A stretch of DNA of 64,000 nt from Nemertoderma westbladi (GCA_032718475.1 JAUCBJ010005164.1:9064-73063), one strand, 5' to 3'; positions 6,901 through 64,000 are shown, numbered from the stretch's first letter. Notes: generated by a model not told the origin, from the letters alone. Translations and numbers: made by a program.

Positions 6901-8581
6901 GTCAATATAGAGTATCAACCACTCGATCGTATTTAACAATATAATCCCATTCTCATGTGCGATAATACTTAGGTTTATATTTTACTGTCAACGTTCAAAT
7001 AAAATAAAGATTTGTTTGTAAATGAAAAATAAAATTCAAATAGATATGAATTTACGAATTCAATTAATCCAATAGACTCACCTGTACAAGTAGTCCCATC
7101 TCCTTGGTAACCAGGGAGACAAACACACTGGGGTACGTTATTTACTTCGGTGCATCGAGCCGCAACGGGACAGTTCAATATGTGCGTTGTGCAATCGCTA
7201 GCAACTAAAAATAAATTGATATGGTCGTATAAGACAAAAATGTTTGAATTATTACTACAAAATGTTTGAATTATTACTACAAAATGTTTGAATTATTACT
7301 ACAAAATGTTTGAATTATTACTACAAAATGTTTGAATTATTACTACTCCAGTACATTTATCTAAATATTTGTCAAAATGAAATATATGAAAATATATTTC
7401 AGGTTATTTGCGCTCCTTCACTACGTTCGTTTGTGTAAAGAACCACTCGGATCAGCAAACTATAAAGTGGTCATCACACAGACTACTACAGTAGCTGTAT
7501 TGCTACCTAAACGAGTGACAATACAGCTATAATTAAAGTTACAGATACATTAATATATATTTTGTGACTAATAATGAAATGTACCAGAATAGGCCTCTGT
7601 GTACAACAGCTGCGGCAACAAATAGGTCGATTTACTTACGAGTACAGGTTCTCCCGTCTCCATCGTAACCGTCGGGACAGGAACATATCCAACCCCCGTC
7701 TGTGTTCGCACAAATACCGTTGTCTGGATCGCAGTCGTCTGCCAGATCAGCGCACTCATCAATGTCCGAGCAATCGTGACCGTCGCCCTGGTAACCATCG
7801 TGACACTCACAGTAATAGGAGCCGTCCAGATTGTGGCAATCAGCGTCGGCACTGAAAAAATATACAAGAATCGGACATATTAATCGGTGACAAAAATAAT
7901 TTATTCAAAGAAAGGCATTTTTTATTCAATCACAACCATTGTTAATTATGAGAGTGGAAAAAGGAACAAATGTCGACCAACCTACACTAATTACCACCAA
8001 CCTACACTAATTACCATCAACCTGCACTAAAGACCACCCACCTGCACTAATTTACCACCAACCTACACTATTTACAACTAACCTACACTACTACTACTAC
8101 TACTAGGATCGGCATGCTGCATTGCAGCTGCATTTTTAAGAATGCTGTGCCGGCTTGTCAACAAAACCTACACTAATTACCACCAACCTACACTAATTAC
8201 CACCAACCTGCACTAATGACCACCCACCTGCACTAATTTACCACCAACCTACACTATTTACAACTAACCTACACTAATTACCACCAACCTACACTAATTA
8301 CCACCAACCTGGACTAATGACCACCCACCTGCACTAATTACCACCAACCTGCACCAATTACACCCACCTGCAATCATTTGCAAGACTACATTCATCAATA
8401 TCAACGCATTCGCTATTCAGCATCTCATAACCGATGTCGCAGGCGCATTCGTAGCTACCTATAGTGTCGATACAGTGACCGTTCTGGGTAGGACATTGGT
8501 TCTGATGGTTGCACTCATTAGTATTGAAACAGAACCTTCCATTACCATAGTAACCAGGCGGACAGATACAATCATATGACC
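927..8581 (-). CDS. Host gene EGF exons (8368-8581, 7640-7851, 7082-7204, 6290-6502, 6032-6172, 5445-5582, 4836-4975, 4576-4694, 4264-4367, 3527-3724, 3154-3306, 2571-2696, 2223-2387, 1544-1660, 927-1064)
   Basis: All have AG/GT borders and phase-compatible joins giving continuous EGF cysteine spacing. Confidence 0.87.
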
Positions 8582-11500
8582 CTGCACATATAATAGATGC
8601 AAAACGTTTATTAATTATTGATATTGATCATGACATTCAAGTCCAAGTACTTCGCAACTAATAGACGACAGGTTGCGTTCTCACCAGTGTAGATGATAGT
8701 CGAGGCAGTTAAAACTGAGATCCATCATACGATGTATCCGAATTCGGGGGAATACCCCACTCTATACTACTACCTACCCTCGGTATTGGCGCAGTGAGAT
8801 ACCTACTCTATACTACTACCTACCCTCGGTATTGGCGCAGTGAGCTACCTACTCTATACTACTACCTACCCTCGGTATTGGCGCAGTGAGCTACCTACTC
8901 TATACTACTACCTACCCTCGGTATTGGCGCAGTGAGCTACCTACTCTATACTACTACCTACCCTCGGTATTGGCGCAGTGAGCTACCTACTCTATACTAC
9001 TACCTACCCTCGGTATTGGCGCAGTGAGCTACCTACTCTATACTACTACCTACCCTCGGTATTGGCGCAGTGAGCTACCTACTCTATACTACTACCTACC
9101 CTCGGTATTGGCGCAGTGAGCTACCTACTCTATACTACTACCTACCGTCGGTATTGGCGCAGTGAGCTACCTACTCTATACTACTACCCACCCTCGGTAT
9201 TGGCGCAGTGAGCTACCTACTCTATACTACTACCTACCCTCGGTATTGGCGCAGTGAGCTACCTACTCTATACTACTACCTACCCTCGGTATTGGCGCAG
9301 TGAGCTACCTACTCTATACTACTACCTACCTACCCTCGGTATTGGCGCAGTGAGCTACCTACTCTATACTACTACCCACCCTCGGTATTGGCGCAGTGAG
9401 CTACCTACTCTATACTACTACCTACCTACCCTCGGTATTGGTACAGTGAGCTACGTACTCTATACTACTACCTACCCTCGGTATTGACGCAGTGAGCTAC
9501 CTACTCTATACTACTACCTACCCTCGGTATTGGTGCAGTGAGCTACCTACTCTATACTACTACCTACCCTCGGTATTGGCGCAGTGAGCTACCTACTCTA
9601 TACTACTACCTACCCTCGGTATTGGCGCAGTGAGCTACCTACTCTATACTACTACCTACCCTCGGTATTGGCGCAGTGAGCTACCTACTCTATACTACTA
9701 CCTACCCTCGGTATTGGCGCAGTGAGCTACCTACTCTATACTACTGCCTACCCTCGGTATTGGCGCAGTGAGCTACCTACTCTATACTACTACCTACCCT
9801 CGGTATTGGCGCAGTGAGCTACCTACTCTATACTACTACCTACCCTCGGTATTGGCGCAGTGAGCTACCTACTCTATACTACTACCTACCCTCGGTATTG
9901 GCGCAGTGAGCTACCTACTCTATACTACTACCTACCAACCCTCGGTATTGGCGCAGTGAGCTACCTACTCTATACTACTACCAACCCTCGGTATTGGCGC
10001 AGTGAGCTACCTACTCTATACTACTACCTACCCTCGGTATTGGCGCAGTGAGCTACCTACTCTATACTACTACCTACCCTCGGTATTGGCGCAGTGAGCT
10101 ACCTACTCTATACTACTACCTACCCTCGGTATTGGCGCAGTGAGCTACCTACTCTATACTACTGCCTACCCTCGGTATTGGCGCAGTGAGCTACCTACTC
10201 TATACTACTACCTACCCTCGGTATTGGCGCAGTGAGCTACCTACTCTATACTACTACCTACCCTCGGTATTGGTGCAGTGAGCTACCTACTCTATACTAC
10301 TACCTACCTACCCTCGGTATTGGCGCAGTGAGCTACCTACTCTATACTACTACCCACCCTCGGTATTGGCGCAGTGAGCTACCTACTCTATACTACTACC
10401 TACCTACCCTCGGTATTGGCGCAGTGAGCTACCTACTCTATACTACTACCTACCATCGGTATTGGCGCAGTGAGCTACCTACTCTATACTACTACCCACC
10501 CTCGGTATTGGCGCAGTGAGCTACCTACTCTATACTACTACCTACCTACCCTCGGTATTGGCGCAGTGAGCTACCTACTCTATACTACTACCTACCCTCG
10601 GTATTGGCGCAGTGAGCTACCTACTCTATACTACTACCTAACATCGGTATTGGTGCAGTGAGCTACCTACTCTATACTACTACCTACCCTCGGTATTGGC
10701 GCAGTGAGCTACCTACTCTATACTACTACCTACCCTCGGTATTGGTACAGTGAGCTACCTACTCTATACTACTACCTACCCTCGGTATTGGCGCAGTGAG
10801 CTACCTACTCTATACTACTACCTACCCTCGGTATTGGCGCAGTGAGCTACCTACTCTATACTACTACCTACCAACCCTCGGTATTGGCGCAGTGAGCTAC
10901 CTACTCTATACTACTACCTACCCTCGGTATTGGCGCAGTGAGCTACCTACTCTATACTACTACCTACCCTCGGTATTGGCGCAGTGAGCTACCTACTCTA
11001 TACTACTACCTACCCTCGGTATTGGCGCAGTGAGCTACCTACTCTATACTACTACCTACCCTCGGTATTGGCGCAGTGAGCTACCTACTCTATACTACTA
11101 CCTACCAACCCTCGGTATTGGCGCAGTGAGCTACCTACTCTATACTACTACCTACCCTCGGTATTGGCGCAGTGAGCTACCTACTCTATACTACTACCTA
11201 CCCTCGTTATTGGCGCAGTGAGCTACCTAATCTATACTACTACCTACCCTCGGTATTGGCGCAGTGAGCTACCTACTCTATACTACTACCTACCCTCGGT
11301 ATTGGCGCAGTGAGCTACCTACTCTATACTACTACCTACCCTCGGTATTGGCGCAGTGAGCTACCTACTCTATACTACTACCTACCCTCGGTATTGGTAC
11401 AGTGAGCTACCTACTCTATACTACTACCTACCCTCGGTATTGGCGCAGTGAGCTACCTACTCTATACTACTACCTACCCTCGGTATTGGCGCAGTGAGCT

Positions 11501-14500
11501 ACCTACTCTATACTACTACCTACCCTCGGTATTGGCGCAGTGAGCTACCTACTCTATACTACTACCTACCCTCGGTATTGGCGCAGTGAGCTACCTACTC
11601 TATACTACTACCTACCCTCGGTATTGGCGCAGTGAGCTACCTACTCTATACTACTACCTACCCTCGGTATTGGCGCAGTGAGCTACCTACTCTATACTAC
11701 TACCTACCCTCGGTATTGGCGCAGTGAGCTACCTACTCTATACTACTACCTACCCTCGGTATTGGCGCAGTGAGCTACCTACTCTATACTACTACCTACC
11801 CTCGGTATTGGCGCAGTGAGCTACCTACTCTATACTACTACCTACCCTCGGTATTGGCGCAGTGAGCTACCTACTCTATACTACTACCTACCCTCGGTAT
11901 TGGCGCAGTGAGCTACCTACTCTATACTACTACCTACCCTCGGTATTGGCGCAGTGAGCTACCTACTCTATACTACTGCCTACCCTCGGTATTGGCGCAG
12001 TGAGCTACCTACTCTATACTACTACCTACCCTCGGTATTGGCGCAGTGAGCTACCTACTCTATACTACTACCTACCCTCGGTATTGGCGCAGTGAGCTAC
12101 CTACTCTATACTACTACCTACCCTCGGTATTGGTACAGTGAGCTACCTACTCTATACTACTACCTACCCTCGGTATTGGCGCAGTGAGCTACCTACTCTA
12201 TACTACTACCTACCCTCGGTATTGGCGCAGTGAGCTACCTACTCTATACTACTACCTACCCTCGGTATTGGCGCAGTGAGCTACCTACTCTATACTACTA
12301 CCTACCCTCAGTATTGGCGCAGTGAGCTACCTACTCTATACTACTACCTACCCTCGGTATTGGCGCAGTGAGCTACCTAGTCTATACTACTACCTACCCT
12401 CGGTATTGGTGCAGTGAGCTACCTACTCTATACTACTACCTACCCTCGGTATTGGCGCAGTGAGCTACCTACTCTATACTACTACCTACCCTCGGTATTG
12501 GCGCAGTGAGCTACCTACTCTATACTACTGCCTACCCTCGGTATTGGCGCAGTGAGCTACCTACTCTATACTACTGCCTACCCTCGGTATTGGCGCAGTG
12601 AGCTACCTACTCTATACTACTACCTACCCTCGGTATTGGCGCAGTGAGCTACCTACTCTATACTACTGCCTACCCTCGGTATTGGCGCAGTGAGCTACCT
12701 ACTCTATACTACTACCTACCCTCGGTATTGGCGCAGTGAGCTACCTACTCTATACTACTACCTACCCTCGGTATTGGCGCAGTGAGCTACCTACTCTATA
12801 CTACTACCTACCCTCGGTATTGGCGCAGTGAGCTACCTACTCTATACTACTACCTACCCTCGGTATTGGCGCAGTGAGCTACCTACTCTATACTACTACC
12901 TACCCTCGGTATTGGCGCAGTGAGCTACCTACTCTATACTACTACCTACCCTCGGTATTGGCACAGTGTGCCAGATGGTCGCACTGATGGGCACCAGTTT
13001 TGCACTCATTGACATCCTTACAGAAGTCGCAGTGACCTTGGTAGCCAGGACGACACTGACATATAAACCCTGGATCTTGGTCTATGCACTCAGCCTTACT
13101 GTCGCAGTTATGTGTCCCATCATCACATTCGTTGATATCTAACACAAGAATAAATTGATTAAAACAAAGTAGAAGTAGAAATCACTTTTCGACGAAGTTA
13201 TCCAATCGTGTATCAACACCTCCACTAAAGATAAACACTACATATGCTAACAGTAATATTATAATTTGAATAATACCAACTTTCGCACTGTCTTCCGGGA
13301 GGACTTCCAATCGATCTGTAACCGTCTTTACACTGACAAGTGTAACCCCCATTGTTGTTTATGCAATGAGCATTGTCGTCACAGTCATCCGTGCCAAGAC
13401 CGCATTCATCGATGTCTACAATGTCAGTAATAAACACAATAATTATGTCCTACATATTTTATATATTTTAAATAATATCCAATGAATACGCTTTAATTAG
13501 TTACATAATTTATATTCTGCAAATTACATATTATACTGTATATAAAACCGTGCTATTCTTGTTAATTTTTGCGTTAGGGTGGGAGGAACTTCTGTAACAT
13601 AGGCCCTATATAAAATAATGATTCGTACCGTTAAATAAGTTGTTGGTTCCAACGACTACTCGAGCCCCCAGCTCGCTCGTACCAAAGTTACTTACCGATA
13701 CACTGAACTCCCCCGCTCGTACCGGGTGCGTCGGTGTACCCAGGACGGCACTCACAGTAGAACCCGGGCTCTGTGTTCGTGCATTCAGCATTCTCGTGGC
13801 AATTGTGCAGGTTGGATGTACATTCGTTTATATCTGAGGAAAATTTTAGAAACATTAATTATAAGAAACTCATTGATCAGTATTGTTTACAGGATTTGAC
13901 TACATCTCTATCAACCCATTTGGATACTAACCCTCACACTGGGTACCGTCACCAGAGAATCCCGGTTTACATTGACAATGATACCCTGGAATATCGTTGA
14001 TGCAGATCGCATTATCGTCGCAGTTGTTTCCGTTCGGAAGTTCCCGTCGCCGTCGGCGATCTGTTATCTCATCGTCCACACACTCGTTGATATCGTCACA
14101 ACTCCGGCCGTCGCCAGTAAAACCTAAAAAGAAAATCCGAAGAAAATATATAAAATACGACAAATTTATGAACCACAATAAACAATAAAATCAATTATTC
14201 GCTTCTGTTACTGATATTGTGTTGTTAATCCAAAGTCATTTTTCGTATTTTTCGTATGTTCAATTTTCCCAGTTTTTCGTATTATTCCAAATAAAAAATA
14301 AAAAAAAACAAGTTGTTAGGGAGTACAGATGTTTGATTTCGAGGCAATACAGACAATTAAGCTATTAAGGTAATTCATGGGCGCTCCCAACAAAACGTAC
14401 CTAAATATTACTGAAAGCATTTAAATAAACATAAATCTACGCACTTCGGTGGCTGAATGTGGCCAATTCCATTAATATCACATTCAGCCAAACCAACGTA

Positions 14501-17500
14501 ACGCACCTAAAATTAGCCCACCGCACCGAAAGAGAACTAAAAACATTTTATAGAAATTAAACTTACCGTCGTGACAAACGCAGTCAAAAGATCCCGGCGT
14601 ATCTATACAATCAGCGTTAACATCGCAATCATCTGTATTCTCATCACATTCGTTGATGTCTACATGATTAACATTTGTCATATAATAATATCTAACACAA
14701 TAATTATTCACACTATCATTAAAGTACAAGATATGAAATAAACTATCCATATATGAGACAGCAAATCCCATCTTGGCGAATTAATATCCCGCCTCAATGT
14801 TAAATTCTCAATTTAGAGAAAGGAGCAGGTTACAGAGGCACGTTATTTTAACCAAAACAATAAACTAAACACAATAGAACAGGTAACAGTTATATTTTTG
14901 GTAGTAATCAGCTGTTATTTGCGTCGAATTTCCCCTGGAGAGGGATGCATTTTTTTGCGCCGAAAGACCCCCCGTATCTGCCATCTATCTACACACTAAC
15001 TTTCGCAGCTGTAAGGATCCACGCGTCTGTAACCAGGGAGACAGTCGCACTCATACGACCCCTCTGTGTTGATACACGTAGTGCTAGAAGCATCGCAGTT
15101 GTCACTGCCGTCAGCGCATTCGTCGACATCTGAGAAATATAAAGAAATAAAGTATAGGCCTATACTGCTATACTTGTTGGAGTTCATGGGAGGTAACCAA
15201 GATGCAGTAATCAACCGGTAAGCAACTACATGGGATTCAGGAAATCTATTGCCCCTTCCGGCACTCATTGAATAAATGTAGAAAACAAATAATAATTCTC
15301 TTTAAAAACAAAATAAACGTTGAGGAATCTACTTGACTATTTAATGCAGAACTACAGTATTATTAAATAAGGTTAACATTACCAGTACAGGTGACTCCGT
15401 CTCCTTCATATCCGGCCTTACAAACACACGTGTATCCACCAGGGGTGTTTTCGCAATTAGCATTGATGTCGCAGTCATGTGTCCCATCATTACATTCGTT
15501 GTCATCTGAATATTATGTATAGAAAAATAAATATCAAATATTTTACATTTAACATTTCACCTCTAATAAATGTTACATATTATATTAAATAAATATAAAA
15601 GAAAGGAAATATGAAATATATGCCACTAATTAATATTGTATATTTGGTAAATAATAATTAATAATTTAATAATTCTATAAGAATTTGAATCTAAAATTAT
15701 TTAGTAAAAAATAATTATTTTCTGTTTATACGACCCGTAATAGTAAGGGAAGTCGTACCTTCACAGGAAACTCCATCTCCAGAATATCCATCATTACATT
15801 CACAACTAAATCCTCCAGGGAAGTTGGTGCAGGTCGCATGGGCGTGGCAGTTGTTGGTACCATCCAAGCACTCGTCATCGTCTGAAAAAAGAAACGAATT
15901 ATAACCAGTTTGTTTTACGAATAAACTACAGTTAAGTGATTCAACGATAAAACTTGTATTTCTTTTGTCTTTATTAAGAAGAATGCGAAATGAAACTTAT
16001 TGACTGGCCTCCGTTGAATTAACTCTGTTCGTTCAAAGCCAGAAGGTTACCATAGCAAAAGGTTTAGAACAGGCTGATCCTTATATACGTGGCATTGTGG
16101 TATATGTTTCATCAGTTTATAAGCTCTTTATCGATGACCCGCGATATTTTTTATATAAACAAGATCTTTATAACATCTTTGTTTTCGATATGTTCTTACA
16201 TTTATTATACGAACTTTTCAAGGGGTTTCGTTACTTCGAATGATAAGTTTATTTTACGGAAAATAACTTTGTATAATAATGGCGCAATAATTGTAGGACT
16301 AACCCCTTCACGTGCTTGTTTCTTAACCGGGTAGTGTATAATTTCTTTAATGTAAAATAAATATATCTCACATCTCTCCAAAACACAAACACGTTTCAAC
16401 TTCACTGAGTATCTTCAGCGTGTTGCCTGATTGGAACCTGTGACTCATCGCTTTGGAAGCCGAGTCACCCACGCTACGCCACAAGATCTATATAGAAGAT
16501 GTGGAGTATGGCACTGCTCGCTTAACAAGTACGCACGTGATGGAATTAGTACTACAAACGTGCCAATAAAAAATGAGTTAGTTTCCTTAAATGAATAATT
16601 CGGGGTTAGGACCCTCTAGAACACAACTCAGTTCCTATAATAAATGGGTAACCTTGGAGACAGCTTCTTCTAAACTATGTTAAATTTTGAGGTCCCACCA
16701 ATATATACGAATGAACACCGATGACGTCAGCCAAAATCAGCAACATATACCGCAGGTGTTCCAAGGCTTGCCAGAAATCAGCAACATATACCGCAGGTGT
16801 TCCAAGGCTTGGCAGAGTCTAACAAAAATGAGAGCAAATTGCATGTCCTTCTGCATTGTGCAGATAGTTGTACAATAACATTTTTAAGTGCCAGAGTTGG
16901 ATCCAAGTTGCGTCGTCTAGCTTTACAGAAACTTATTGATTGCTACACGAAAGACTCCCCACAGAGATATGACCAAAAAGGGAGATGACCTTTCATGGGG
17001 TTTGGCTGTAATAGTAGTTGGCAATCCTCAATAATACCTCGCCCTCAGGCGGGACTCCAATAAAAGTACCATGCTGTATTGGTTTAATTCCTTATTTTCT
17101 GTAAATCTGAGAAATCAATAAACCTCTGCATCTCTGCAAATGTTGCATCACCTATAGGGGTGCCCGAGAGTACAGTGTGGGATACAGAATGTACATAGAA
17201 TTCATCTGGCAGCACTCGGTCATTAATGATCAGTTTATCGATAAGGGCCTTACAACCCGCCAAAAGTTCACCAACAGAATCACTTTAGATACTACTTTAG
17301 GAAGGAAAGAAAAATTATTAACTTTTTGTTATTGTACTATATTTAATTTTATTCTCCATTTAATATTAGTATACGAGGCTTATTGAATAGTCACGACAAT
17401 ATATTATCTGTGGGATTTGAACATTGTGTACCTCTCTAACAACCCATTTAAACCTGAACTACTAACCTTCGCACTGTGTACCGTCACCATTGTATCCAGG

Positions 17501-20500
17501 TATGCATTCACAATGATACCCCGGTACATCGTTGATGCAGTTCGCATTAACGTCGCAGTTGTTGTTGCCATTCGCACATTCGTCTTCGTCGTCGCAAGTT
17601 CGACCATCGCCGCTAAAACCTAAGATTTCAGACAATATAATAAAAGGCGACAAGTTAAACAAATCAAGTAACAAACAATACAGATGTAGAATTGAACATC
17701 TAGTGAACTTTATTACTTCATTAACCTTTACTCCCGATTCCGGATTATCAACCTCGAAAAAACGCGCAGTAATTATTTATCATATGTCTCATCTTTCTTG
17801 GCAGTGCCGCACGACCTCGTTCTTCGAGAGGAGCTACATTGCGCGTCTAGCAGTACTATGTTGACATCATCCGCACCAGGATTCCGTCCCGCAGTCAGTT
17901 TTTCCACTCCGGGTCCGACAACGTTATGACCTCCCTATCCACCGAACCGCCATGAAGTCGGCATGTAGATACCATGAGCTGGTTATGCTCCGCCATCGGC
18001 GTAGGTTGGATGGTGTTGTTCTTACCAATTCTATGCCCCCCCCCCCGCCCTCTATCTCTATGAAATTGTTGGGGTTCTAATTGTAAGGATCTGATGCTAA
18101 AATTGTTGAATGACTCGTGGGGTTCCATCATTTTCTTACTGTGCCTTGGAGGATTGTCTACCACACATAGGACGCACTCTGATGGCATCTGTTCGGCGAC
18201 TAGTCCTTTGCTGGTGCTGAATTAAACTGACAACTAGTGTGTTACCTGAATGACTGACTCGTGATACCTGGGGAGGGACATCTGTAGACATCATTATCAT
18301 CAACGACTCGCCTTCGATATGACCTTATCCAGATAATGACCGAATTGTAATTACATTAGTATTCATATTGATTATTAATATTTTCTAAACATTTTCTAAA
18401 TATTTGCCTCCGTGGTGTAGTGCTTAGCATACCTGAACGTTTATCGGGAGACGCGGGTTCAATCCCCGCTGGTGGCGAATTCATTTTTTCCGCTCCATTT
18501 GCTATAGAGTTGGATCATCCTTAGTCCTGTTTAATTACTTATTAATATTTTCTAAATGTTTTTTAATTTCTCTGAATAATCTCTTAGAAAATCGTATATT
18601 ATTATTATTATCTTGAGGAGAGCATTATCATCGGGATTAAGTAGCCGTTTTATCGGATTCCATTATTCGTGAGATAAAATTTAAACTCTATATCTATCAG
18701 GGGCCCGGGAACGATTTTTGGCGTCGGGGTCATAGACTGATGGAAGGGTACAGGATCCTTCACTAAAACTCATGGGGCATCAATAATCATCGGCGCTCTA
18801 CATTCATTTATATATTCAAATATTACGGAAGATTTACATAATTAAATCAATCAATCCACCATCAAAATTCAGATAGATTTATATATAGTATGCCATGATG
18901 GAAATTAAACTTACCGTCGTGACAAACGCAGTCGAAAGATCCCGGCGTATCTATACAATCAGCGTTAACATCGCAATCATCTGTATTCTCATCACATTCG
19001 TCGATGTCTAAATGTTATACATTTGTCATATAATATTATCTAACAGTTTTATTAAACTATTGAATGTTTATTGAACTAACAAACTAACTAATAAACGTAC
19101 AACATTCACACTATCATTAAAGTATATGACATAAACTATCCATCTACACACTAACTTTCGCAGCTGTAAGGATCCACGCGTCTGTAACCAGGGAGACAGT
19201 CGCACTCATACGACCCCTCTGTGTTCCTACACGTAGTGCTAGAAGCATCGCAGTTGTCACTGCCGTCAGCGCATTCGTCGATATCTGAGAAATATAAACA
19301 GATAATTTATTAATAAATTATGACTAAGTTCTTTTAGGAGAATAATATTTTTTGTTTATTGTTGTTCTCGTGTTCTCAGCTTTGTGCGCCAACTCTCCCT
19401 AAACGACCAGTAGTTTAGCACAAATAACATTATCATATAAATATCAGTACTACAGTAAGATATGATGAATGCATAGGGATGACTGCATAGGGATGATTGA
19501 TTGTAATAAAACTCGCGTTAAGGCCACAATTTCTCATAAAGTGTGAATTCAGATATGATGCAACAATGGTGATGGTGGATATGGTGTTCTTGCATATATT
19601 AGTTATCTTTAATAATTAATAATAATTAATATAAATGTACTGGGATTTAATTAAAGTTATCGCTGTAGTTAATTATATTTTCATTTAAACTGAACATTAC
19701 CAGTACAGGTGACACCATCGCCTTCATAGCCAGCTTTACAGATACAAATAAATCCACCAGGGATATTTTCGCAGTTAGCATTGATGTCGCAGTTATGTGT
19801 CCCATCAGTGCATTCGTTGTCATCTGAAAGTTAAGAAAAAATAACATTAGTAATATGTGTTATTATATTTTATTATATATTATAAGTAATTTAGATGAAA
19901 GTTCAATTTTGAAAGTTATACATTTATTATAGGAAGGGATCTAGCCAACACATTGTTACTATCAATTTTGAAAGTGAAATTTGCAACTATATAATTAATA
20001 AATGAAAAGAAATGCATGTTAATATAGGGAGTGACTTTATGACCATGCCTTTAATTAGTTTTTATGTTCAGCTTTTGCGAAGCTAAGCTTTGCATATAGC
20101 TATAGAGAAAATATGAATATTTTAATGCGATATGTTACCCCTGTGAGGGGCAGGTTTATTATATTATATAAAATAGTTAAGGATTCTAAAATATCGAACT
20201 ATTACATAACACAAATATAAAATAATGCAAAAAATATCGAACTATTACATAACACAACTATAAAATAATGCAAAGAATGAGGGCATTGTAAAGGCCCATG
20301 CATAGAATGAGAACAATGAAACGGCCAAGGCCAAATGAAGGAGGATGATGGGGTGGCTGGTGGGTTATAAAAACTTATTAAGATAAGAAACAACAAAATT
20401 TTGTATTTTGTAATAGACCAAAACATAAGTTGGCGGATTAAACATGAAATAAAATATTAACATCCTTTAAAAATCAAATGAGCCGAATGACGCACTTTTA

Positions 20501-47500: not shown

Positions 47501-50500
47501 ATATCGGAATAAATTTCCATAATTTCTTCAAGAGTTGGTTTCTCTCGCGGATGAATATTGTTCCAGTCAAACATCAGTTCCAGTTGATTGTAAGAAAGAA
47601 TGTAAGCATGCAGCACATACTTATATATCTTAGTGAGGAGTTTGGGAGCCAAACCTTTGTGGAACCACTTCGATATGATGTCACTCTGGTCACCCTCGGT
47701 ACTACGATCTGCAACGTTTCCCCACTTCCTACTTTCAGCAGTTACAATCCCGCGGGCCAACGATCGTATTAAGTTGGCCATGGCGATTTCCTGTAACGTC
47801 AGAAGACGGCAATCGGATTTCAGAATAACCGGTCCCTTTCCTTTAGCTTTACTCGCGTACCGGTAGGCACACATTGTCTACCGGTATTCCTAATAAATAA
47901 CTTCTAATAACAAAGTACCGAACGGTAATTATAAAGAAAACCTAAACTGTACTCAGTACTATTTTAATTACAATACAAATATTTAATAAGGCTCGTTCGT
48001 TATTCAGATGTATGTTAATAAATAACAGAATGATGTTTTATTTAATTAGTGACAGTTTTATTTAGGTCAGTAGGGTTAAGGCCTGACCAACTAACCCTAA
48101 CCAAAATAATAAACCAAATATACCCATAATAAAACAATCATCCATTGATCCATAGCCTCAACAAATTCACTGTACCGTACAATCCCGTAAATTAAAAACA
48201 ATTTAGTATTTTGTATTGGAGTATTGGTGTATTCAGCCAATTTAGGAACCGGTATTGTATTATTGTAAGTACCGGTACTTGAAACGTGACTGTACCGAAC
48301 AGACGATTTATGGTAAGTTATTGCCAGCAGCAGCTATGGGTTTCACGCTCTAGGGGCCTACCGCACACCTTAAACAAGCGTATTAGCAGCTTAATTAAAC
48401 TGTTGGCCTAATTAAAATGGCCTCCCAATCCTACAATCACTGAATCAATACTACAACAGCAGTAAGCCTACTGCAGAAATAAAATTCAAATTTCCCGCTT
48501 AAATGCTAAAAATCCAAATACAATTAATTTTTTCGCCACAGATTGTGTCACATTGTACGAAAGTACTACAAATGTTAACGTTCGCATTGTACATATTATG
48601 TAGTTCAGTTGAGTAGCGAGGTTTCTGGCGCCCTGTGACTGGCGCTAACCCCCTCCCCCCGCATTTTAAAAGATATATAATATTGCTTGCCTTATCCAAC
48701 TACTGGTAAATATAAATAAGGCCCCAACACATTGTTAAATTATAAGAGAAAAGGCTGGCTGGGTGGATGACTGGGTCGGGGTGGAGGCATTATTGGAATG
48801 TGGCTGGGACTACAACGTTTAGATAATGTATGGCTTCCTTATCTTTATGCTTATAGACCGAATTTTCTAATTTGGCACCCTTCGCAAATAGACGCCCTGT
48901 AACACTTGTCCCCCTTAGTCGGCGTTAGAGCTTCGGGGCTGGCTAACCAAAACAATAAACGATCTCAATAACAATACAGCAGGGAAAGAAGCAGGTAACA
49001 GAGGCAAGCTTTTCTAACCAAAACAATAAACGATCTTGATAATAATATATGGAAATATATGGAGCAGGTTACAGGGGCGGGCTTCTCTATACAAAACAAT
49101 GAACGATATCATTAACAGTACAGGGAAAGGAGCAGGTTACACCAGAAGCAGGCTTTTCTAACCAAAATAATAAACGATCGACTTACAGTATGTACATATA
49201 TTGAAGGAAAGAAAACAGGTTATACAGAGTAGGCTTTTAAAGGGTAAGTAGGCTACTTAATATCAAAATTATGTAATTATAGATAATAAATTACGAACAG
49301 TATAGATAGTTACTACATTACATATCACAATCAGAATCGATACGTTGTATTGCAGTACTGAATATGCACAAGTAAAGTCTATAAATTAATTCTCTGTAAG
49401 TCTGATATACAGTAGGACTTAAGGGGGGGTATACCCCCCCATGAACCTTTTTTTTCAATGGCTGTCAATTAGTGTTAAATAAGAATATTGCTATTTTGTC
49501 ATGGTCAACCGCTGTATGGAAGGCCAAATAGCCTTTAAAGTAAAATTTGAAAATTTGTAGCCTCCCCTAGCGGCTGGCGGCGGAATTAAAGATTCAACTA
49601 AAATTGCTACTAGTTCCTCAATTTTGGTCCAAATTTCATGAAACCAACTTTTTTGGACTCAGCGTGATCGACTCTACAAAAGTTATCGTATAGAATTTTT
49701 AAATAGCCCATTGTATTTTAATTAATTAATTTTATTAATTAATTATCATATGTTTAATTAAAAATGGCTAATTAGAAAAAATGGTAATATTTATTAACTT
49801 TTATATTATTAACTATTAACTTTTGATAACTTTTAAAGAGCTTCCAAAGCTCGTTCGAATGAGCCATAAATTAAGAAAATTGGTTGAAAAATGACGGAGG
49901 AGTAGTAATTTGAATATGAAAAATGTCATTCCGAGAAAATGCCCTTCAAAGTTTAAACCGTCCCGCTAAAATTGGCTGTCTGTGTTCTGGTTGGTTAATT
50001 ATTTCTGGCACGAAGGATGCACACCAACGAGCTAAAATATTCATTACTGGGGTTTTCGGGGTCGCTGATTTCATTTCCGATGTCAGTTTTAATTTTTGGT
50101 GGAATCTAGTCTATCTGTCTGTCTGTCGGTCTTCTGTCTTTCTTACAATTTGACGGACAGACCGTCATACGGAAAAACAGTGATAACTCGAGAACTGAAA
50201 GAGGTCTCACTAAGCGGTTTTCAGATTTGTAATCCTCATTAAATTCTGCTCTAGGTGAAATAAAGAAACCAGAATTTGAAAATTTTACCTGAGGGGGGGG
50301 GGGGGGGGGGGGGGGGGCGTGGGGTATACCCCCCCCCCCCCCCCCCCCCCCCCCTTAAATCTGAAATAAAACTGGCGCAAAAAAACGTCAAAAAAAACTG
50401 AGAGAAAATTAAAAAAGAGATTTACGGGAGCGGTGTAACTGTGGTCGACTACTAATCAATGATGTTGGATGGATCTCCAAGACAAATCGGTGTTCATAAT

Positions 50501-53500
50501 ACGTCGTTACATTTTAGACAATAATATTATTATTGTTTTTGTTTGTTATATGTAAATATCAGGTTTGCGGTGATTAAACTAACGAACAACCTAGGCCTAA
50601 TTACCCGAATGGACCAACTCACCTTGTCTGCAAGTGCACGTAAATCCAGGGAAGTTATCTACGCAGTCAGCATTGATATGGCAGTTGTGGGTACCAGCGG
50701 TACATTCGTTAATGTCTGCATGTGGAAAGTAAATTAAAATTAAAGTATATTGTAATGGTCGGGTCGGTTATATTCAAATTAACTTGATGTTAAGGCAAAA
50801 TTACAGTATCTAATAATACGGGCGCATTTACTTGGAAGTTAATTGAAACTAAGGAAAAAATAAAATATCGGAATTAAATAAAGTATAATTTTTTTGGCTA
50901 CCACAACTGGTCTTCCCGTGATAAATAAAGTATAACGTACTGCGACAGGTGGTCGGGTCTCCAGTTGGTTCGAATCCTGGTAGGCATTCGCAGGTAAAAG
51001 TCCCAAGTCCTTCTACACATATAGTAGTCTGCCTGTCGCAGTTATCACGCCCCAGTGCGCAGTTTTCAACGGCTACAAATAAGTAAAAGTCACAAACAAT
51101 TCATTTAATAAGTAAACGAAATAAACGAAAAAATCCAACAACAGTTAACACGAGAGAACGTTATGTTACAACCTAGTATTTACCTGAAATAAAGCTTAAG
51201 TGGGTGTTGTTATGGCTATGGGCAACACAAATGAGAGTAATACAATTGTTGATTCGCAAAAGTGGGAAAAAAATAAATTCAAAAAAAGTTATAGTGTATT
51301 ATAGACGGGGCAAACACAAGAACGCAGTTTAAATACTTACGAATGCATTCACCATACCCATCTCCGTCTGGGTCGTGCAAAGTAAATCCTTCCAGACAGG
51401 TGCAGTGGAATCCTCCTGGAAAGTTCTCGCAATAAGACACAGACTCGTCGCAGTCATCTTCTCCCTCAACACATTCGTTAAAATCCTCACATTCTTCGGT
51501 GTCATAGTTATAATCGAAGCCCTAGAAGGAAGACACATAGTTCCACTAGGAATTTGTTATTATTTTAAAACAATTTTCATTCAACTTAACGTAATAATAT
51601 TTGTGAGCATATTTCAATCTCCCCCACCTAATAATCTACCTCCAGTAATGTATGACTAATGTATGACTAATGTATGACTAATGTATGACTAATGTATGAC
51701 TAATGTATGACTAATGTATGACTAATGTATGACTAATGTATGACTAATGTATGACTAATGTATGACTAATGTATGACTAATGTATGACTAATGTATGACT
51801 AATGTATGACTAATGTATGACTAATGTATGACTAATATTATGACAATCTATACATTCCAATATATCAAATACATTCTCAACAAGGGTAGATCAAGATAAT
51901 TTAATTTATATCATCAAATAAGCGATGCTTTAATTATGGCTACCAATTAAAGTCATCCCAAAATTGATGAAAATTTCACCAAAAAAATTTTTTATACCAA
52001 ATTAAATAATGTGACCCCCAAAAAAATTACTCAACACCAAATAAAATAAAGTCACCCAAATAAAATTATTGAAACACCAAAATAAATTTTTCAAAACCAA
52101 AAAACATTATTCAACACCAAAACCAATTATTCAATACCATAATAAAAATGCTCCCCAAAACCAATTATTAGCACCAAAATAAATGACAATACCCCCAAAA
52201 TAATTACAAATTTTCCCAAAACAAATACATTTTAGCCCAAAATAAATACATTTTCCCCCAAAACAAATACCTTTTCCCCCAAAACAAATACATTTTAGCC
52301 CAAAATAAATACATTTTCCCCAAAACAAATACATTTTAGCCCAACATAAATACATTTCCCCCCAAAACAAATACATTTTAGCCCAAAATAAATACATTTT
52401 CCCCAAAACAAATACATTTTAGCCCAAAATAAATACATTTGCGCCAAAACAAATACATTTTCACCCAAAATAAATACATACAGTAATCCCCCAAAATATA
52501 TACTATACTACTGCAGCAATAGGCCTCGCACTTCCTGGAAGTTAGACAAAAAGTTCAGTACTGCCGTAATACGGAAACCTAATAACATAGGCAAAAATAG
52601 ATAGGCAATAAGGCCTAATAGGTAAGAATACTGTAACTGAAGACTGAAGCATGCGCCCATGTGAAGAATACCAGGATTTAATATAAAATATTTGGTGCTG
52701 GAATAATTTTTTTGATGACAAGTAATTATTTTTGGGGGAAAAATAATTGTTTTTGGGGAATCAATAATTGTTTTTGGGGGTAGAATAATTGTTTTTGTGG
52801 GATGAATAATTGTTTTTTGGGGGATGAATAATTGTTTTTTGGGGGAAGAATAATTGTTTTTGAGGGATGAATGATTGTTTTTGGTGAAATGGATATTCAA
52901 TATTGGGGGATGTGAATTGGTGATACAAAAAAATATATTTGGTGGAAAATAATTTATTTTGGTGTTAAATCATCTAATTTGGGGTGGCATTCAATTACTG
53001 GCGTTGAATTATTCATGTAATTTAATTTATCGTTCATTCCTTTCAAACTCATTCATTTATTTACTGAAAATGTTCCAGCTCACAAGCGGATTTTTGTATT
53101 AGAAGTGAATTTACAAAAGGTGTAATTTGATGTGTGTTAGCTTCCATGCTGAAGATACATCTTAGCCTATATAATGTCAATAGCTTTCTAGATTCATATT
53201 TACCCTACATTATGTTATAATAAATTAGTCATGCGCACTTCTATTAGCTCTGTGATTAACTCAACCTCAACTGACTGGTTGATAACTTCGTAATAGGAGA
53301 ATATTTAATAAAACTTACAGGAAAGCATTCACAGCTGAAACCTGGGTCCCCATCAATGCATCCTACTTACCGGGAAGCATTCACAGCTGAAACCTGGGTC
53401 CCCATCAATGCATTCTACTTACCGGCAAGCATTCACAGCTGAAACCTGGGTCCCCATCAATGCATTCTACTTACCGGGAAGCATTCACAGCTGAAACCTG

Positions 53501-56500
53501 GGTCCACAACAATGCATTCTACTTACCGGGAAGCATTCACAGCTGAAACCTGGGTCCACAACAATGCATTCTACTTACCGGGAAGCATTCACAGCTGAAA
53601 ATTGGGTCCACAACAATGCATTCTACTTACCGGGATGCATTCACAGCTGAAACCTGGGTCCCCATCAATGCATTCTACTTACCGGCAAGCATTCACAGCT
53701 GAAACCTGGGTCCCCATCAATGCATTCTACTTACCGGGAAGCATTCACAGCTGAAACCTGGGTTCACAACAATGCATTCTACTTACCGGGAAGCATTCGC
53801 AGCTGAAACCTGGGTCCACAACAATGCATTCTACTTACCGGCAATCATTCAAATCTGAAAACTGGGTCCCCATCAATGTATTCTACTTACCGGCAAGCAT
53901 TCACAGCTGAAACCTGGGTCCCCATCAATGCATTCTACTTACCGGGAAGCATTCACAGCTGAAACCTGGGTCCCCATCGATGCATCCTACTTACCGGGAA
54001 GCATTCACAGCTAAAACCTGGGTCCACAACAATGCATTCTACTTACCGGCAAGCATTCACATCTAAAACCCAGGTCCCCATCAATGCATTCTACTTACCG
54101 GCAAGCATTCACAGCTGAAACCTGGGTCCCCATCAATGCATTCTACTTACCGGCAAGCATTCACAGCTGAAACCTGGGTCCACAACAATGCATCCTACTT
54201 ACCGGGAAGCATTCGCAGCTGAAACCTGGGTCCACAACAATGCATTCTACTTACCGGCAAGCATTCACATCTAAAACCCAGGTCCCCATCAATGCATTCT
54301 ACTTACCGGCAAGCATTCACAGCTGAAACCTGGGTCCCCATCAATGCATTCTACTTACCGGGAAGCATTCACAGCTGAAACCTGGGTCCACAACAATGCA
54401 TTCTACTTACCGGCAAGCATTCACATCTAAAACCCAGGTCCCCATCAATGCATTCTACTTACCGGCAAGCATTCACAGCTGAAACCTGGGTCCCCATCAA
54501 TGCATTCTACTTACCGGGAAGCATTCACAGCTGAAACCTGGGTCCACAACAATGCATTCTACTTACCGGCAAGCATTCACATCTGAAACCTGGGTCCCCA
54601 TCAATGCATTCTACTTACCGACAAGCATTCACAGCTGAAACCTGGGTCCCCATCAATGCATTCTACTTACCGGGAACCATTCACAGCTGAAACCTGGGTC
54701 CCCATCAATGCATTCTACTTACCGGCAAGCATTCACAGCTGAAACCTGGGTTCCCCATCAATGCATTCTACTTACCGGGAAGCATTCACAGCTGAAACCT
54801 GGGTCCCCATCAATGCATTCTACTTACCGGCAAGCATTCACAGCTGAAACCTGGGTCCACAACAATGCATTCTACTTACCGGGAAGCATTCACAGCTGAA
54901 ACCTGGGTCCACAACAATGCATTCTACTTACCGGGAAGCATTCACAGCTGAAACATGGGTCCACAACAATGCATTCTACTTACCGGGAAGCATTCACAGC
55001 TGAAACCTGGGTCCACAACAATGCATTCTACTTACCGGGAAGCATTCACAGCTGAAACCTGGGTCCCCATCAATGCATTCTACTTACCGGCAAGCATTCA
55101 CAGCTGAAACCTGGGTCCACAACAATGCATTCTACTTACCGGGAAGCATTCGCAGCTGAAACCTGGGTCCACAACAATGCATTCTACTTACCGGCAAGCA
55201 TTCACAGCTGAAACCTGGGTCCACAACAATGCATTCTACTTACCGGGAAGCATTCACAGCTGAAACCTGGGTCCACAACAATGCATTCTACTTACCGGGA
55301 AGCATTCACAGCTGAAACCTGGGTCCCCATCAATGCATTCTACTTACCGGCAAGCATTCACAGCTGAAACCTGGGTCCCCATCAATGCATTCTACTTACC
55401 GGCAAGCATTCACAGCTGAAACCTGGGTCCCCATCAATGCATTCTACTTACCGGCAAGCATTCACAGCTGAAACCTGGGTCCACAACAATGCATCCTACT
55501 TACCGGGAAGCATTCGCAGCTGAAACCTGGGTCCACAACAATGCATCCTACTTACCGGGAAGCATTCGCAGCTGAAACCTGGGTCCACAACAATGCATTC
55601 TACTTACCGGGAAGCATTCGCAGCTGAAACCTGGGTCCACAACAATGCATTCTACTTACCGGCAAGCATTCACATCTGAAACCTGGGTCCCCATCAATGC
55701 ATTCTACTTACCGGCAAGCATTCACATCTGAAACCTGGGTCCACAACAATGCATTCTACTTACATGAAAGCAATCACAGCTAAAACCTGGGTCCCCATCA
55801 ATGCATTCTACTTACCGGCAAGCATTCACAGTTGAAACCTGGGTCCACATCAATGCATTCTACTTACCGGCAAGCATTCACATCTGAAACCTGGGTCCCA
55901 ATAAATGCATTCTACTTACCGGCAAGCATTCACAGCTGAAACCTGGGTCCACATCAATGCATTCTACTTACCGGCAAGCATTCACAGCTGAAACCTGGGT
56001 CCCCATCAATGCATTATACTTACCCGCAAGCATTCAGAGCTGAAACCTGGGTCCCCATCATTGCATTATACTTACCCGCAAGCATTCAGAGATGGAACCT
56101 GGGACCCCATCAATGCATTCTACTTAGCGGCAAGCATTCACAGCTGAAACCTGGGTCCACAACAATGCATCCTACTTACCGGGAAGCATTCACAGCTGAA
56201 ACCTGGGTCCCCATCATTGCATTATACTTACCCGCAAGCATTCAGAGATGGAACCTGGGACCCCATCAATGCATTCTACTTAGCGGCAAGCATTCACAGC
56301 TGAAACCTGGGTCCCCATCAATGCATTCTACTTACCGGCAAGCATTCACATCTGAAACCTGGGTCCACAACAATGCATTCTACTTACATGAAAGCAATCA
56401 CAGCTAAAACCTGGGTCCCCATCAATGCATTCTACTTACCGGCAAGCATTCACAGTTGAAACCTGGGTCCACATCAATGCATTCTACTTACCGGCAAGCA

Positions 56501-59500
56501 TTCACATCTGAAACCTGGGTCCCAATAAATGCATTCTACTTACCGGCAAGCATTCACAGCTGAAACCTGGGTCCACATCAATGCATTCTACTTACCGGCA
56601 AGCATTCACAGCTGAAACCTGGGTCCCCATCAATGCATTATACTTACCCGCAAGCATTCAGAGCTGAAACCTGGGTCCCCATCATTGCATTATACTTACC
56701 CGCAAGCATTCAGAGATGGAACCTGGGACCCCATCAATGCATTCTACTTAGCGGCAAGCATTCACAGCTGAAACCTGGGTCCACAACAATGCATTCTACT
56801 TACCGGGAAGCATTCACAGCTGAAACCTGGGTCCCCATCAATGCATTCTACTTACCGGCAAGCATTCAGAGCTGGAACCTGGGACCCCATCAATGCATTC
56901 TACTTACCCGCAAGCATTCAGAGCTGGAACCTGGGACCCCATCAATGCATTCTACTTAGCGGCAAGCATTCACAGCTGAAACCTGGGTCCACAACAATGC
57001 ATTCTACTTACCGGGAAGCATTCACAGCTGAAACCTGGGTCCCCATCAATGCATTCTACTTACCGGCAAGCATTCAGAGCTGGAACCTGGGACCCCATCA
57101 ATGCATTCTACTTACCGGCAAGCATTCACAGTTGAAACCTGGGTCCACATCAATGCATTCTACTTACCGGCAAGCATTCACATCTGAAACCTGGGTCCCA
57201 ATAAATGCATTCTACTTACCGGCAAGCATTCACAGCTGAAACCTGGGTCCACATCAATGCATTCTACTTACCGGCAAGCATTCACAGCTGAAACCTGGGT
57301 CCCCATCAATGCATTATACTTACCCGCAAGCATTCAGAGCTGAAACCTGGGTCCCCATCATTGCATTATACTTACCCGCAAGCATTCAGAGATGGAACCT
57401 GGGACCCCATCAATGCATTCTACTTAGCGGCAAGCATTCACAGCTGAAACCTGGGTCCACAACAATGCATTCTACTTACCGGGAAGCATTCACAGCTGAA
57501 ACCTGGGTCCCCATCATTGCATTATACTTACCCGCAAGCATTCAGAGATGGAACCTGGGACCCCATCAATGCATTCTACTTACCGGGAAGCATTCACAGC
57601 TGAAACCTGGGTCCACATCAATGCATTCTACTTACCGGCAAGCATTCACAGCTGAAACCTGGGTCCCCATCATTGCATTATACTTACCCGCAAGCATTCA
57701 GAGATGGAACCTGGGACCCCATCAATGCATTCTACTTAGCGGCAAGCATTCACAGCTGAAACCTGGGTCCCCATCAATGCATTATACTTACCCGCAAGCA
57801 TTCAGAGCTGAAACCTGGGTCCCCATCATTGCATTATACTTACCCGCAAGCATTCAGAGATGGAACCTGGGACCCCATCAATGCATTCTACTTACCCGCA
57901 AGCATTCACAGCTGAAACCTGGGTCCCCATCAATGCATTCTACTTACCGGCAAGCATTCACAGCTGAAACCTGGGTCCACATCAATGCATTCTACTTACC
58001 GGCAAGCATTCACAGCTGAACCTGGGTCCACAACAATGCATTCTACTTACCGGCAAGCATTCACAGATGAAACCTGGGTCCCCATCAATGCATTCTACTT
58101 ACCGGGAAGCATTCACAGCTGAAACCTGGGTCCCCATCAATGCATTATACTTACCCGCAAGCATTCAGAGCTGAAACCTGGGTCCCCATCAATGCATTCT
58201 ACTTAGCGGCAAGTATTCACAGCTGAAACCTGGGTCCCCATCAATGCATTATACTTACCCGCAAGCATTCAGAGCTGAAACCTGGGTCCCCATCAATGCA
58301 TTATACTTACCCGCAAGCATTCACAGCTGAAACCTGGGTCCCCATCAATGCATTCTACTTACCGGGAAGCATTCACAGCTGAAACCTGGGTCCCCATCAA
58401 TGCATTATACTTACCCGCAAGCATTCACAGCTGAAACCTGGGTCCCCATCAATGCATTCTACTTACCGGGAAGCATTCACAGCTGAAACCTGGGTCCCCA
58501 TCAATGCATTCTACTTACCGGCAAGCATTCACATCTGAAACCTGGGTCCCCATCAATGCATTCTACTTACCGGGAAGCATTCACAGCTGAAACCTGGGTC
58601 CCCATCAATGCATTCTACTTACCGGGAAGCATTCACAGCTGAAACCTGGGTCCCCATCAATGCATTCTACTTACCGGTAAGCATTCACAGCTGAAACCTG
58701 GGTCCCCATCAATGTATTCTACTTACCGGCAAGCATTCACAGCTGAAACCTGGGTCCCCATCAATGCATTCTACTTACCGGGAAGCATTCACAGCTGAAA
58801 CCTGGGTCCCCATCAATGCATTCTACTTACCGGCAAGCATTCACAGCTGAAACCTGGGTCCTCATCAACACATTCTGAGTACTCTGGGCACGGATAGGCT
58901 ACTGGGTCGTCGCATTCATTCTCCGCTGAAAAAACATATTATATAAGATAATATATATAGATATAGATATAATATCATATATATATATAAGAATATAAGT
59001 GTCGATGAAAATGACTCGATATGAATATAAGTGTGTATTAAGTAATGCAACACCTCCTAATATAAACTACTTTTTTGTATTGTTATGATTATTATTAAAC
59101 AACCCACTTTATATTTTTCAAATTTCAAATAAAGTCGACTAACAAATTGCTATATTCTGATAGTTTGACGCTGTTTCTTCTGCTGCTACGGGCAGGATTT
59201 TCAAAATTTTGACATTTTCACTAGAATCCGATAAAAGCTTGTCGACGGCTAACGGTGCAGATAAACAATAAATAACTGTATTAATAGAGAGGACATTCAG
59301 CAGTGTGCACAGTGGACATACCGGTACCGGTACATACCCGCACACATTTCTGATTGGTCACAAGTGTCGCAATCTATTGTGTTGATAAATCCTTCGAGAC
59401 AGACGCACTGGTAGGTTCCTTCTATATTGATACACTCCGAGTTGGGTTCGCACTCATAATCGTTGCACGTGATCACGTGATCGGGGTTGCATACGCACTC

Positions 59501-61884: not shown

Positions 61885-63935
61885 AAAAAGTAAATAAAAA
61901 CTAAGTAAAAAAGTAAGTAAGTAAAAAAGTAAGTAAAAAGTAAGTAAAAAAGTAAGTAAAAAGTAAGTAAAAAAGTAAGTAAAAAAGCAAGTAAGGAAAA
62001 AGTAAGTAAAAAAGTAAGTAAAAAGAAAGTAAAAAAGTAAGTAAAAAAGTAAGTAAAAAAGTAAGTAAAAAAGTAAGCAAAAAGTAAGTAAAAAAGTAAG
62101 TAAAAAGTAAGTAAAAAAGTAAGTAAAAAGGTAAGTAAAAAAGTAAGTAAAAAGTAAGTAAAAAAGTAAGTAAAAAAGTAAGTAAAAAGTAAGTAAAAAA
62201 GTAAGTAAGTAAAAAAGTAAGTAAGTAAAAAAGTAAGTAAGTAAAAAAGTAAGTAAGTAAAAAAGTAAGTGAGTAAAAAAGTAAAAAAGTAAGTAAAAAA
62301 ATAAGTAAAAAGTAAGTAAAAAAGTAAGTAAGTAAAAAAGTAAGTAAGTAAAAAGTAAGTAAAAAAGTAAGTAAAAAAGTAAGTAAAAAGTAAGTAAAAA
62401 AGTAAGTAAGTAAAAAAGTAAGTAAGTAAAAAAGTAAGTAAAAAGTAAGTAAAAAAGTAAGTAAAAAGTAAAAAAGTAAGTAAGTAAAAAAGTAAGTAAA
62501 AAGTAAGTAAAAAAGTAAGTAAGTAAAAAAGTAAGTGAAAAGTAAGTAAAAAGTAAGTAAAAAAGTAAGTAAAAAGTAAGTAAAAAAGTAAGTAAGTAAA
62601 AAAGTAAGTAAAAAGTAAGTAAAAAGTAAGTAAAAAGTAAGTAAAAAGTAAGTAAAAAGTAAGTAAAAAGTAAGTAAAAAGTAAGTAAAAAGTAAGTAAA
62701 AAGTAAGTAAAAAGTAAGTAAAAAAGTAGGTAAGTAAAAAAGTAGGTAAGTAAAAAAATAAGTAAAAAGTAAGTAAAAAAGTAAGTAAGTAAAAAAGTAA
62801 GTAAGTAAAAAGTAAGTAAAAAAGTAAGTAAAAAAGTAAGTAAAAAAGTAAGTAAAAAGTAAGTAAAAAAGTAAGTAAGTAAAAAAGTAAGTAAAAAGTA
62901 AGTAAAAAAGTAAGTAAAAAGTAAGTAAAAAAGTAAGTAAAAAAGTAAGTAAAAAAGTAAGTAAAAAGTAAGTAAAAAAGTAAGTAAAAAGTAAGTAAAA
63001 AAGTAAGTAAAAAGTAAGTAAAAAAGTAAGTAAGTAAAAAAGTAAGTAAAAAGTAAGTAAAAAGTAAGTAAAAAAGTAGGTAAGTAAAAAAGTAGGTAAG
63101 TAAAAAGGAGGTTGAGTTTCGCCCTTTTGCGGTCAGCCCTCCTGTGCCTTCGCGGCTGTCGATCAGCTAAGCGGCGTCCGGTTCGGTGCGACGTGGAGTC
63201 GATCATCCACAGCAATGCCGACTGCAACCCGGCGTAGGCGACTGTGGATAACAACCCTCCAAGTTTGGAGGACAGTCAGACAGTATCATATACTAACTGT
63301 AGTATTAATTTAACAGTGTATATTTGTCTGGTTGTTGGTGGTGGTTGCTATGCGATCTGATGTGCATCAGCTGTTTTTACAAGCTTTAATAATAAATATA
63401 CGGCTATAGTTTAAAAAAAAAAAAAAAGTAAGTAAAAAGTAAGTAAAAAAGTTAGTAAAAAAGTAAGTAAGTAAAAAAGTAAGTAAGTAAAAAAGTAAGT
63501 AAAAAAGTAAGTAAAAAAGTAAGTAAAAAAGTAAGTAAAAAGTAAGTAAAAAAGTAAGTAAAAAAGTAAGTAAAAAGTAAGTAAAAAGTAAGTAAAAAAG
63601 TAAGTAAAAAGTAAGCAAAAAAGTAAGTAAAAAGTAAGTAAAAAAGTAAGTAAAAAGTAAGTAAAAAGTAAGTAAAAAAGTAAGTAAGTAAAAAAGTAAG
63701 TAAGTAAAAAAGTAAGTAAGTAAAAAAGTAAGTAAAAAAGTAAGTAAAAAAGTAAGTAAAAAAGTAAGTAAAAAGTAAGTAAAAAAGTAAGTAAAAAAGT
63801 AAGTAAAAAAGTAAGTAAAAATGTAAGTAAAAAGTAAGTAAAAAAGAAAGTAAGTAAAAAGTAAGTAAAAAGTAAGTAAAAAAGTAATGAAAAAAGTACG
63901 TAAAAAAGTAAGTAAAAAGGTAAGTAAGTACGTAA
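61885..63935. repeat. (GTAAGTAAAAA[A])n satellite in two blocks, separated by ~310 bp of non-repeat sequence (63108-63420)
   Basis: Directly visible 11-16 bp variable units. Confidence 0.96.
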
Positions 63936-64000
63936 GAAATTTCTCCACAATAGTTTTAGTTGCTAGAAATTACCCATCGCTTATTTCTATGATTGGGGTA

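Follow-up and report, generated by a model that had tools for sequence, protein, structure and literature searches.

Exon-intron borders of an EGF-repeat gene of Nemertoderma westbladi copied into minisatellite arrays of the 'mirage' type

An EGF-repeat gene of Nemertoderma westbladi carries seven minisatellite arrays, and in all seven the repeated unit spans an exon-intron boundary of the gene itself. The arrays belong to an already known kind, the 'mirage' minisatellites described in amphioxus. We think it probable that they come from ordinary local duplication followed by ordinary minisatellite expansion, and that they are removed together with the intron. The DNA analyzed, which we call the window, is a stretch of 64,000 nucleotides (GCA_032718475.1, JAUCBJ010005164.1:9064-73063), and the features discussed are collected in Table 1 in coordinates of that stretch.

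Table 1. Features of the window, with copy numbers as assembled.
Feature	Position	Strand	Description
Host EGF-repeat gene	927..61720	-	48 modelled exons, coordinate-based model
52-bp array	53313..58876	-	107 units: exon 6 last 46 nt + 6 nt donor; authentic donor after 58831
106-bp array (first)	34847..37853	-	28 units: exon 10 last 97 nt + 9 nt intron; authentic donor after 37757
57-bp array	28686..31807	-	54 units: exon 14 last 43 nt + 14 nt intron; authentic donor after 31765
106-bp array (second)	26923..28491	-	14 units (97 + 9), in exon 15, paralog of exon 10
56-bp array	22899..23903	-	about 17 units: pyrimidine tract and AG of the intron end, then about 6-9 nt of exon 20
46-bp array	8759..12968	-	about 90 units: exon 33 last 19 nt + 27 nt intron; authentic donor after 12950
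Degenerate 20-bp array	7976..8372	-	exon 34 (about 5 nt), donor, intron (about 13 nt)
18-bp duplication	5565..5600	-	two copies across the acceptor of exon 39 (5582)
Degenerate 21/41-bp array	5606-5780		one end within a few bases of the duplicated acceptor (5600)
Very high-copy element	8089-8166; 5131-5410		fragment at 8089-8166
Repeated five-exon block	14567-37912		internal repeat of the host gene
Exon 30	13932-14123	-	13-codon insertion
Anoctamin ORF	39336-41858	+	intronless, 840 codons, in intron 9 of the host gene
Second nested ORF	46183-47874	-	intronless, 563 codons, in intron 9 of the host gene
A-rich satellites	61885-63083; 63422-63936		8-12 bp units

Joined together, the 48 modelled exons of the host gene give a coding length of 6946 nt (2315 codons) with zero stops, and the translation of this model, which is likely incomplete at both ends, contains 316 cysteines and 32 calcium-binding-EGF-like starts. 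Exons of the gene make up 10.9% of the window, in agreement with the tenth given in a preliminary description of this DNA. A Pfam comparison of ten single frames (8 exons and 2 nested ORFs) assigned 7 of the 8 exons a VWD, C8, TIL, TILa, EGF or EGF_CA domain; taken exon by exon, the domain order is VWD, C8, TIL and TILa, then many EGF and calcium-binding EGF (EGF_CA) domains. A search for relatives of the C8 exon gave no match.

The introns of the model can be compared with spliced sequence. The sequencing run X4 is listed as 'DNA?'; its coverage is confined to exons and its contigs are spliced, while none of its splice joints appear in three other runs, and thus we read X4 as RNA-derived. The X4 contigs contain 15 introns (13 joints of the form CT..AC and two more found separately), and all 15 are equal to introns of the model, 12 of them predicted before the RNA was used, while three were set with its help (those of exon 41 and of the exon 47 acceptor).

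The gene is repetitive in its exons as well. A five-exon block is repeated internally, with paralogous exons up to 97-99% identical and 60-nt flanks often at 47-68%, a pattern that suggests gene conversion limited to the exons. Exon 30 has an insertion inside an EGF domain, with a run of five arginines, which we take to resemble a proprotein-convertase site.

The preliminary description had proposed that six arrays (units of 52, 106 twice, 57, 46 and about 20 bp) copy the 3′ end of an exon plus its GT donor, and that the 56-bp array copies an acceptor. The anatomy of the units bears out both statements. In every case the authentic splice site sits at the exon-proximal end of the array; for the 56-bp array, the last copy is the authentic acceptor, and exon 20 starts at 22904. 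The combined span of the seven arrays is 18,874 bp, where about 18 kb had been estimated. The 20-mer includes only about 5 exon bases, comparable to the human F7 repeat (4 bases). Across the five large donor arrays, GT is kept in 276 of the 288 downstream copies (99/106 in the 52-bp array, 26/27 in the first 106-bp array and 50/53 in the 57-bp array). The 20-mer array contributes 13 additional donor-like sites, for about 290 extra intact donors overall, close to the 'roughly 300' of the first estimate, or 386 if a less strict rule lets a second site of the 46-mer count too. The 56-bp array adds 16 extra acceptor-like sites.

How many times did such arrays originate? The two 106-bp arrays sit in exons (10 and 15) that share 99% identity, and a single base of 106 separates their consensus units, while the flanks are 55-68% identical. 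On these grounds we count the two arrays as one origin; they may have stayed alike since then, or they may have been copied by conversion. That leaves six origins for the seven arrays, five at donors and one at an acceptor, in line with the claim of at least five independent ones. In the five large arrays, units deviate on average by 0.4-2.5 bases from their consensus, and the edge unit, the one in the real exon, has 3, 2, 2, 1 and 0 differences from it. This is the pattern of concerted evolution within arrays, with the edge units set apart.

To the list of border copies we add the 18-bp two-copy duplication, whose upstream AG would add six codons in frame. The degenerate 21/41-bp array next to it, which is scored as non-spanning in the placement count below, may be an old decayed acceptor array. 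The 20-bp array is interrupted by a fragment of an element that also occurs elsewhere in the window and whose copy number is very high, its summed depth in the DNA runs exceeding 300,000.

The preliminary description knew of no named system that matched these arrays. There is one. Amphioxus mirages are tandem duplications of exon-intron borders in Adh3 and globin genes (PMC3087553). They occur at donors as well as acceptors, their units are 10-160 bp long, and they show concerted evolution and an unstable length while splicing proceeds undisturbed; PMC3902484 adds PGBD5 and troponin C. The unit lengths found here (20, 46, 52, 56, 57 and 106 bp) all fall within that range. The amphioxus cases (BflGb6, BflGb9, Adh3, troponin C and PGBD5) resemble ours in being border copies of the donor or the acceptor side, many of which keep AG or GT, with concerted evolution, edge units set apart, and normal splicing continuing, as seen in our gene at the 46-bp array and the 18-bp duplicate. 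They differ in scale: the amphioxus globin mirages have 3-6 copies, and the Nemertoderma westbladi gene has 14-107 per array, from six origins and over 19 kb.

Human genes have junction minisatellites too, among them, as given in PMC1557585, F7 IVS7 (37 bp), 6-16 (IFI6), CBS intron 13, LMNB2 (100 bp) and PDGF intron 4 (81 bp). They are alike in having a first monomer that spans the border and a donor repeated downstream. In F7 minigenes the most upstream donor is selected, and F7, LMNB2 and PDGF use the first donor only; 6-16 and CBS additionally splice at two pseudo-sites, so by analogy some leak would be possible in the EGF gene. These human cases have one array per gene with 5-26 copies, unlike the seven arrays of the EGF gene. 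Internal tandem repeats at exon-intron borders are also reported for human duplicated genes (PMC2812944), and the likeness extends to their being internally duplicated, dynamic genes. The available text of PMC10078293 yielded nothing on junction-spanning units. The arrays differ from the intron gain by tandem duplication of the Rogers model (as described in PMC3087553) in that they make no new intron. Paralogous exons without arrays share lengths and borders (exon 19 matches exon 14 at 93 nt, and exon 20 matches exons 10 and 15 at 156 nt), and thus no intron has been created by the arrays.

The RNA-derived run gives direct information on splicing for one of the seven arrays, the 46-bp one, and for the 18-bp duplicate, each through contigs of a single run, of a kind that drop rare isoforms. 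Contig record 8 of X4 (453 nt, depth 15.3) joins exons 31, 32 and 33, and aligns no further than 12949, a single base beyond the first donor of the 46-bp array, despite 44 further array bases having been compared. The leftover 43 letters match the depth of exon 34: 15.3 x 44 / 276 = 2.44, exactly the value seen. At 8604-8850, the far end of the array, the depth of X4 is 0. We infer that record 8 splices the first donor of the array to exon 34, skipping all 4.2 kb. At this array, as in human F7, a first monomer that spans the border goes with use of the most upstream donor. For the 18-bp duplicate, an X4 contig uses the exon-proximal (downstream) AG, at 5582. In the X4 contigs of this one run, splicing is undisturbed at both places. 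No X4 contig was seen to cross the donor of the 20-bp array or the acceptor of the 56-bp array; stretches that X4 does not cover count for neither side.

These observations fit a simple account. A local duplication of an exon-intron border, likely an ordinary one, would be followed by expansion, likely through ordinary minisatellite turnover. A duplication spanning a donor would leave the exon and the first donor intact, and the spliceosome would take the first donor (or the last acceptor), as demonstrated for human F7; for that reason the array would be tolerated. It is then likely removed with the intron, and for the 46-bp array the RNA shows this removal. Rare use of later sites would mostly lead to a premature stop: an in-frame stop lies 5-38 nt past the real donor in 5 of the 6 donor arrays (15 nt in the 52-bp array, 38 nt in the first 106-bp array), and all 16 upstream acceptors of the 56-bp array would give a stop. 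Three circumstances may contribute to the high local density of such arrays, namely an exon-dense gene (94 junctions in 40 kb, with arrays collapsed), long GC-richer units that would come mostly from exons (GC 0.51 vs. 0.35), and a window chosen for showing the pattern. The copies are likely passive. Against a reading in which passive copies also landed by chance stands the excess at junctions, which survives the removal of all-exon origins and matching for GC.

That excess was measured on the 33 arrays of period at least 10 within the gene, with the 106-bp pair counted once (32), by collapsing units and placing them at random in the collapsed gene of 39,896 bp with its 94 junctions. Most arrays (26/33) touch no junction. 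Taking all arrays, 6 of 32 span a junction, where 2.1 to 2.7 are expected (p 0.016 to 0.038). For arrays of at least ten copies, a cut-off set after seeing the data in a window chosen for its pattern, 6 of 9 span a junction; the expectation is 0.91 under uniform placement, 1.01 without all-exon origins, and 1.53 when GC is matched as well (p 0.00003 to 0.0005, the GC-matched null giving p=0.0005). Without the 20-mer, 5 of 8 high-copy arrays span a junction (p=0.003), and so do 5 of the 9 with period at least 40 (p 0.003 to 0.02). Under ten copies, none of 23 does. The local excess is real within the window, and GC explains only part of it. Placement beyond chance, which the preliminary description had suspected, holds locally for the high-copy arrays, but it does so in a window picked for the pattern and beside the majority of arrays that lie off junctions. 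Survival bias, one of the explanations then suggested, fares in a similar way: the first donor and the proximal acceptor are indeed the sites used in the RNA seen, but survival bias barely touches the excess, given that the expectation rises only from 0.91 to 1.01.

One could then suppose that mutation itself is biased to junctions, that is, that duplication, or more likely the later expansion, is favored where a unit spans a splice junction, for instance by R-loops or by breaks coupled to transcription or splicing. Such arrays would be no less passive; only their placement would not be due to chance. The contrast between high-copy and low-copy arrays points this way, as do the donors in five of six origins and the three unit types with an excess of G on the sense strand (skew 0.30, 0.31 and 0.68). 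On the other hand, the post hoc cut-off and the choice of window weigh against it, the test on all arrays is far less striking, and the other three unit types have no G skew. There is no common breakpoint signature, with an exon overlap that ranges from 5 to 97 nt, and exact microhomology at the origin is 0 in the 4 arrays tested. Across the remaining junctions there is just 1 further short duplication, the 18-bp one. We regard a junction-biased mutation as unlikely, though well within reason. Conversion between paralogous exons was also considered as a general cause of origin and rejected: paralogs at 80% identity or more exist for 18 of the 48 exons, but for only 2 of the 6 array origins.

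A bolder version would have minisatellite expansion in this lineage biased about four-fold to junction-spanning units, with a splicing- or transcription-linked process that writes arrays at exon edges, homogenizes them with the live exon, and is able to lengthen an exon in frame (57-bp array) or provide 96-nt cassettes (106-bp arrays). We give this version little credence.

Could the copies have a function? The preliminary description had raised the idea of a functional device (decoy sites, NMD-linked regulation, variable exon length). In such a device the copies would be decoy or alternative splice sites that tune expression via NMD, or 19-residue extensions of exon 14 (57-bp array), or 96-nt in-frame cassettes (106-bp arrays). 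The high retention of GT would go along with such a role, but it carries little weight because homogenized young arrays give such retention. In indel-free, re-phased units (264 kept), the donor 9-mer is not conserved, with 16 alleles in 45 columns vs. 85 in 322 elsewhere (p=0.29). An apparent erosion of the donor (25 variants in 45 columns vs. 95 in 322) was an alignment artifact that disappeared with this re-phasing, and CpG hypermutation was likewise discarded (10 alleles in 42 columns, p=0.75). The 96 variants in exon-derived parts of the copies show no synonymous bias, as 20 of them are synonymous, compared with 186 of 891 possible ones (0.209).

The 57-bp array is the sole array in which the next donors (+57 and +114) are in frame and open, but 7 of its spacings measure 58 nt, and 230 nt beyond the donor the frame is closed; one of the six unit lengths is divisible by three, which is not above chance. 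In the 106-bp arrays there are 39 AG-96 nt-GT blocks, and all but one of these, 38, are open in the frame of the gene. But the first EGF cysteine is absent from the blocks, which have 4-5 Cys; their pyrimidine tracts are weak, at a T fraction of 0.34-0.35 vs. 0.53 at real acceptors, and the blocks lie 10 nt apart, when the shortest real intron of the host gene is 98 nt. And at the 46-bp array and the 18-bp duplicate the RNA seen uses the authentic sites only. By these comparisons of sequence the copies behave as unconstrained intron, and we consider a functional device very unlikely; the sequence tests lend it no support.

Finally, arrays that start at exon edges could be products of a collapsed or looped assembly, since none of the contigs compared spans a whole array and copy numbers are as assembled, but the evidence makes this hardly credible. 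The units are heterogeneous, with 45 distinct units of 107 in the 52-bp array, 22 of 28 in the first 106-bp array, 32 of 54 in the 57-bp array, 11 of 14 in the second 106-bp array and 16 of 90 in the 46-bp array. The summed depth of the 46-bp unit is 4773 in run X1, which may be from the source sample, and 1031 in the DNA run X2, which belongs to a different study, vs. about 25-30 on the flanks; the two runs differ in this depth, and summed contig depth is no copy number. X2 contigs enter both ends of the 46-bp array from unique sequence, and the X2 bin with the last 56-bp unit is at depth 49.5 vs. 23-26 beside it, about twice. Since X2 comes from another study, its high depth on the 46-bp unit indicates that the 46-bp array is not an assembly artifact.

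The window has other features besides the arrays. Nested in intron 9 of the EGF gene, and antisense to it, is an anoctamin ORF, likely a retrocopy, with about 40% identity to many bilaterian anoctamins; among the best 120 of 578 relatives, where the best identity is 40%, there is no Branchiostoma protein. The second intronless ORF of that intron lies on the strand of the host gene and has only weak LRR matches, below the Pfam cut-offs. The two A-rich satellites carry 103 and 43 donor-consensus hexamers on the plus strand, opposite the EGF gene, with no adjoining exon seen at either; between them is a 338-bp GC-richer spacer that is unique in the window. At 18372-18538 an X2 contig skips 167 bases, and 18 letters fit both sides; the likely cause is a polymorphic insertion of a short high-copy element, together with its target-site duplication. 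In intron 21, at 20036-20705, an X4 contig of 698 nt and depth 55 goes back 670 bases on itself, from a circle or from a tandem copy elsewhere.

The arrays of this gene are an unusually dense example of a known phenomenon, with six origins in one gene and up to about 106 competing donors in one intron. Their importance would be greater if a junction bias turned out to be true genome-wide, because PMC3087553 calls the mechanism behind mirages unclear, and our literature search, which covered few subscription papers, found no genome-wide enrichment test of junction-spanning arrays. For the 46-bp array, the RNA indicates that the first of about 90 donors wins, and such a gene lends itself to testing first-come 5′ splice-site selection outside mammals.
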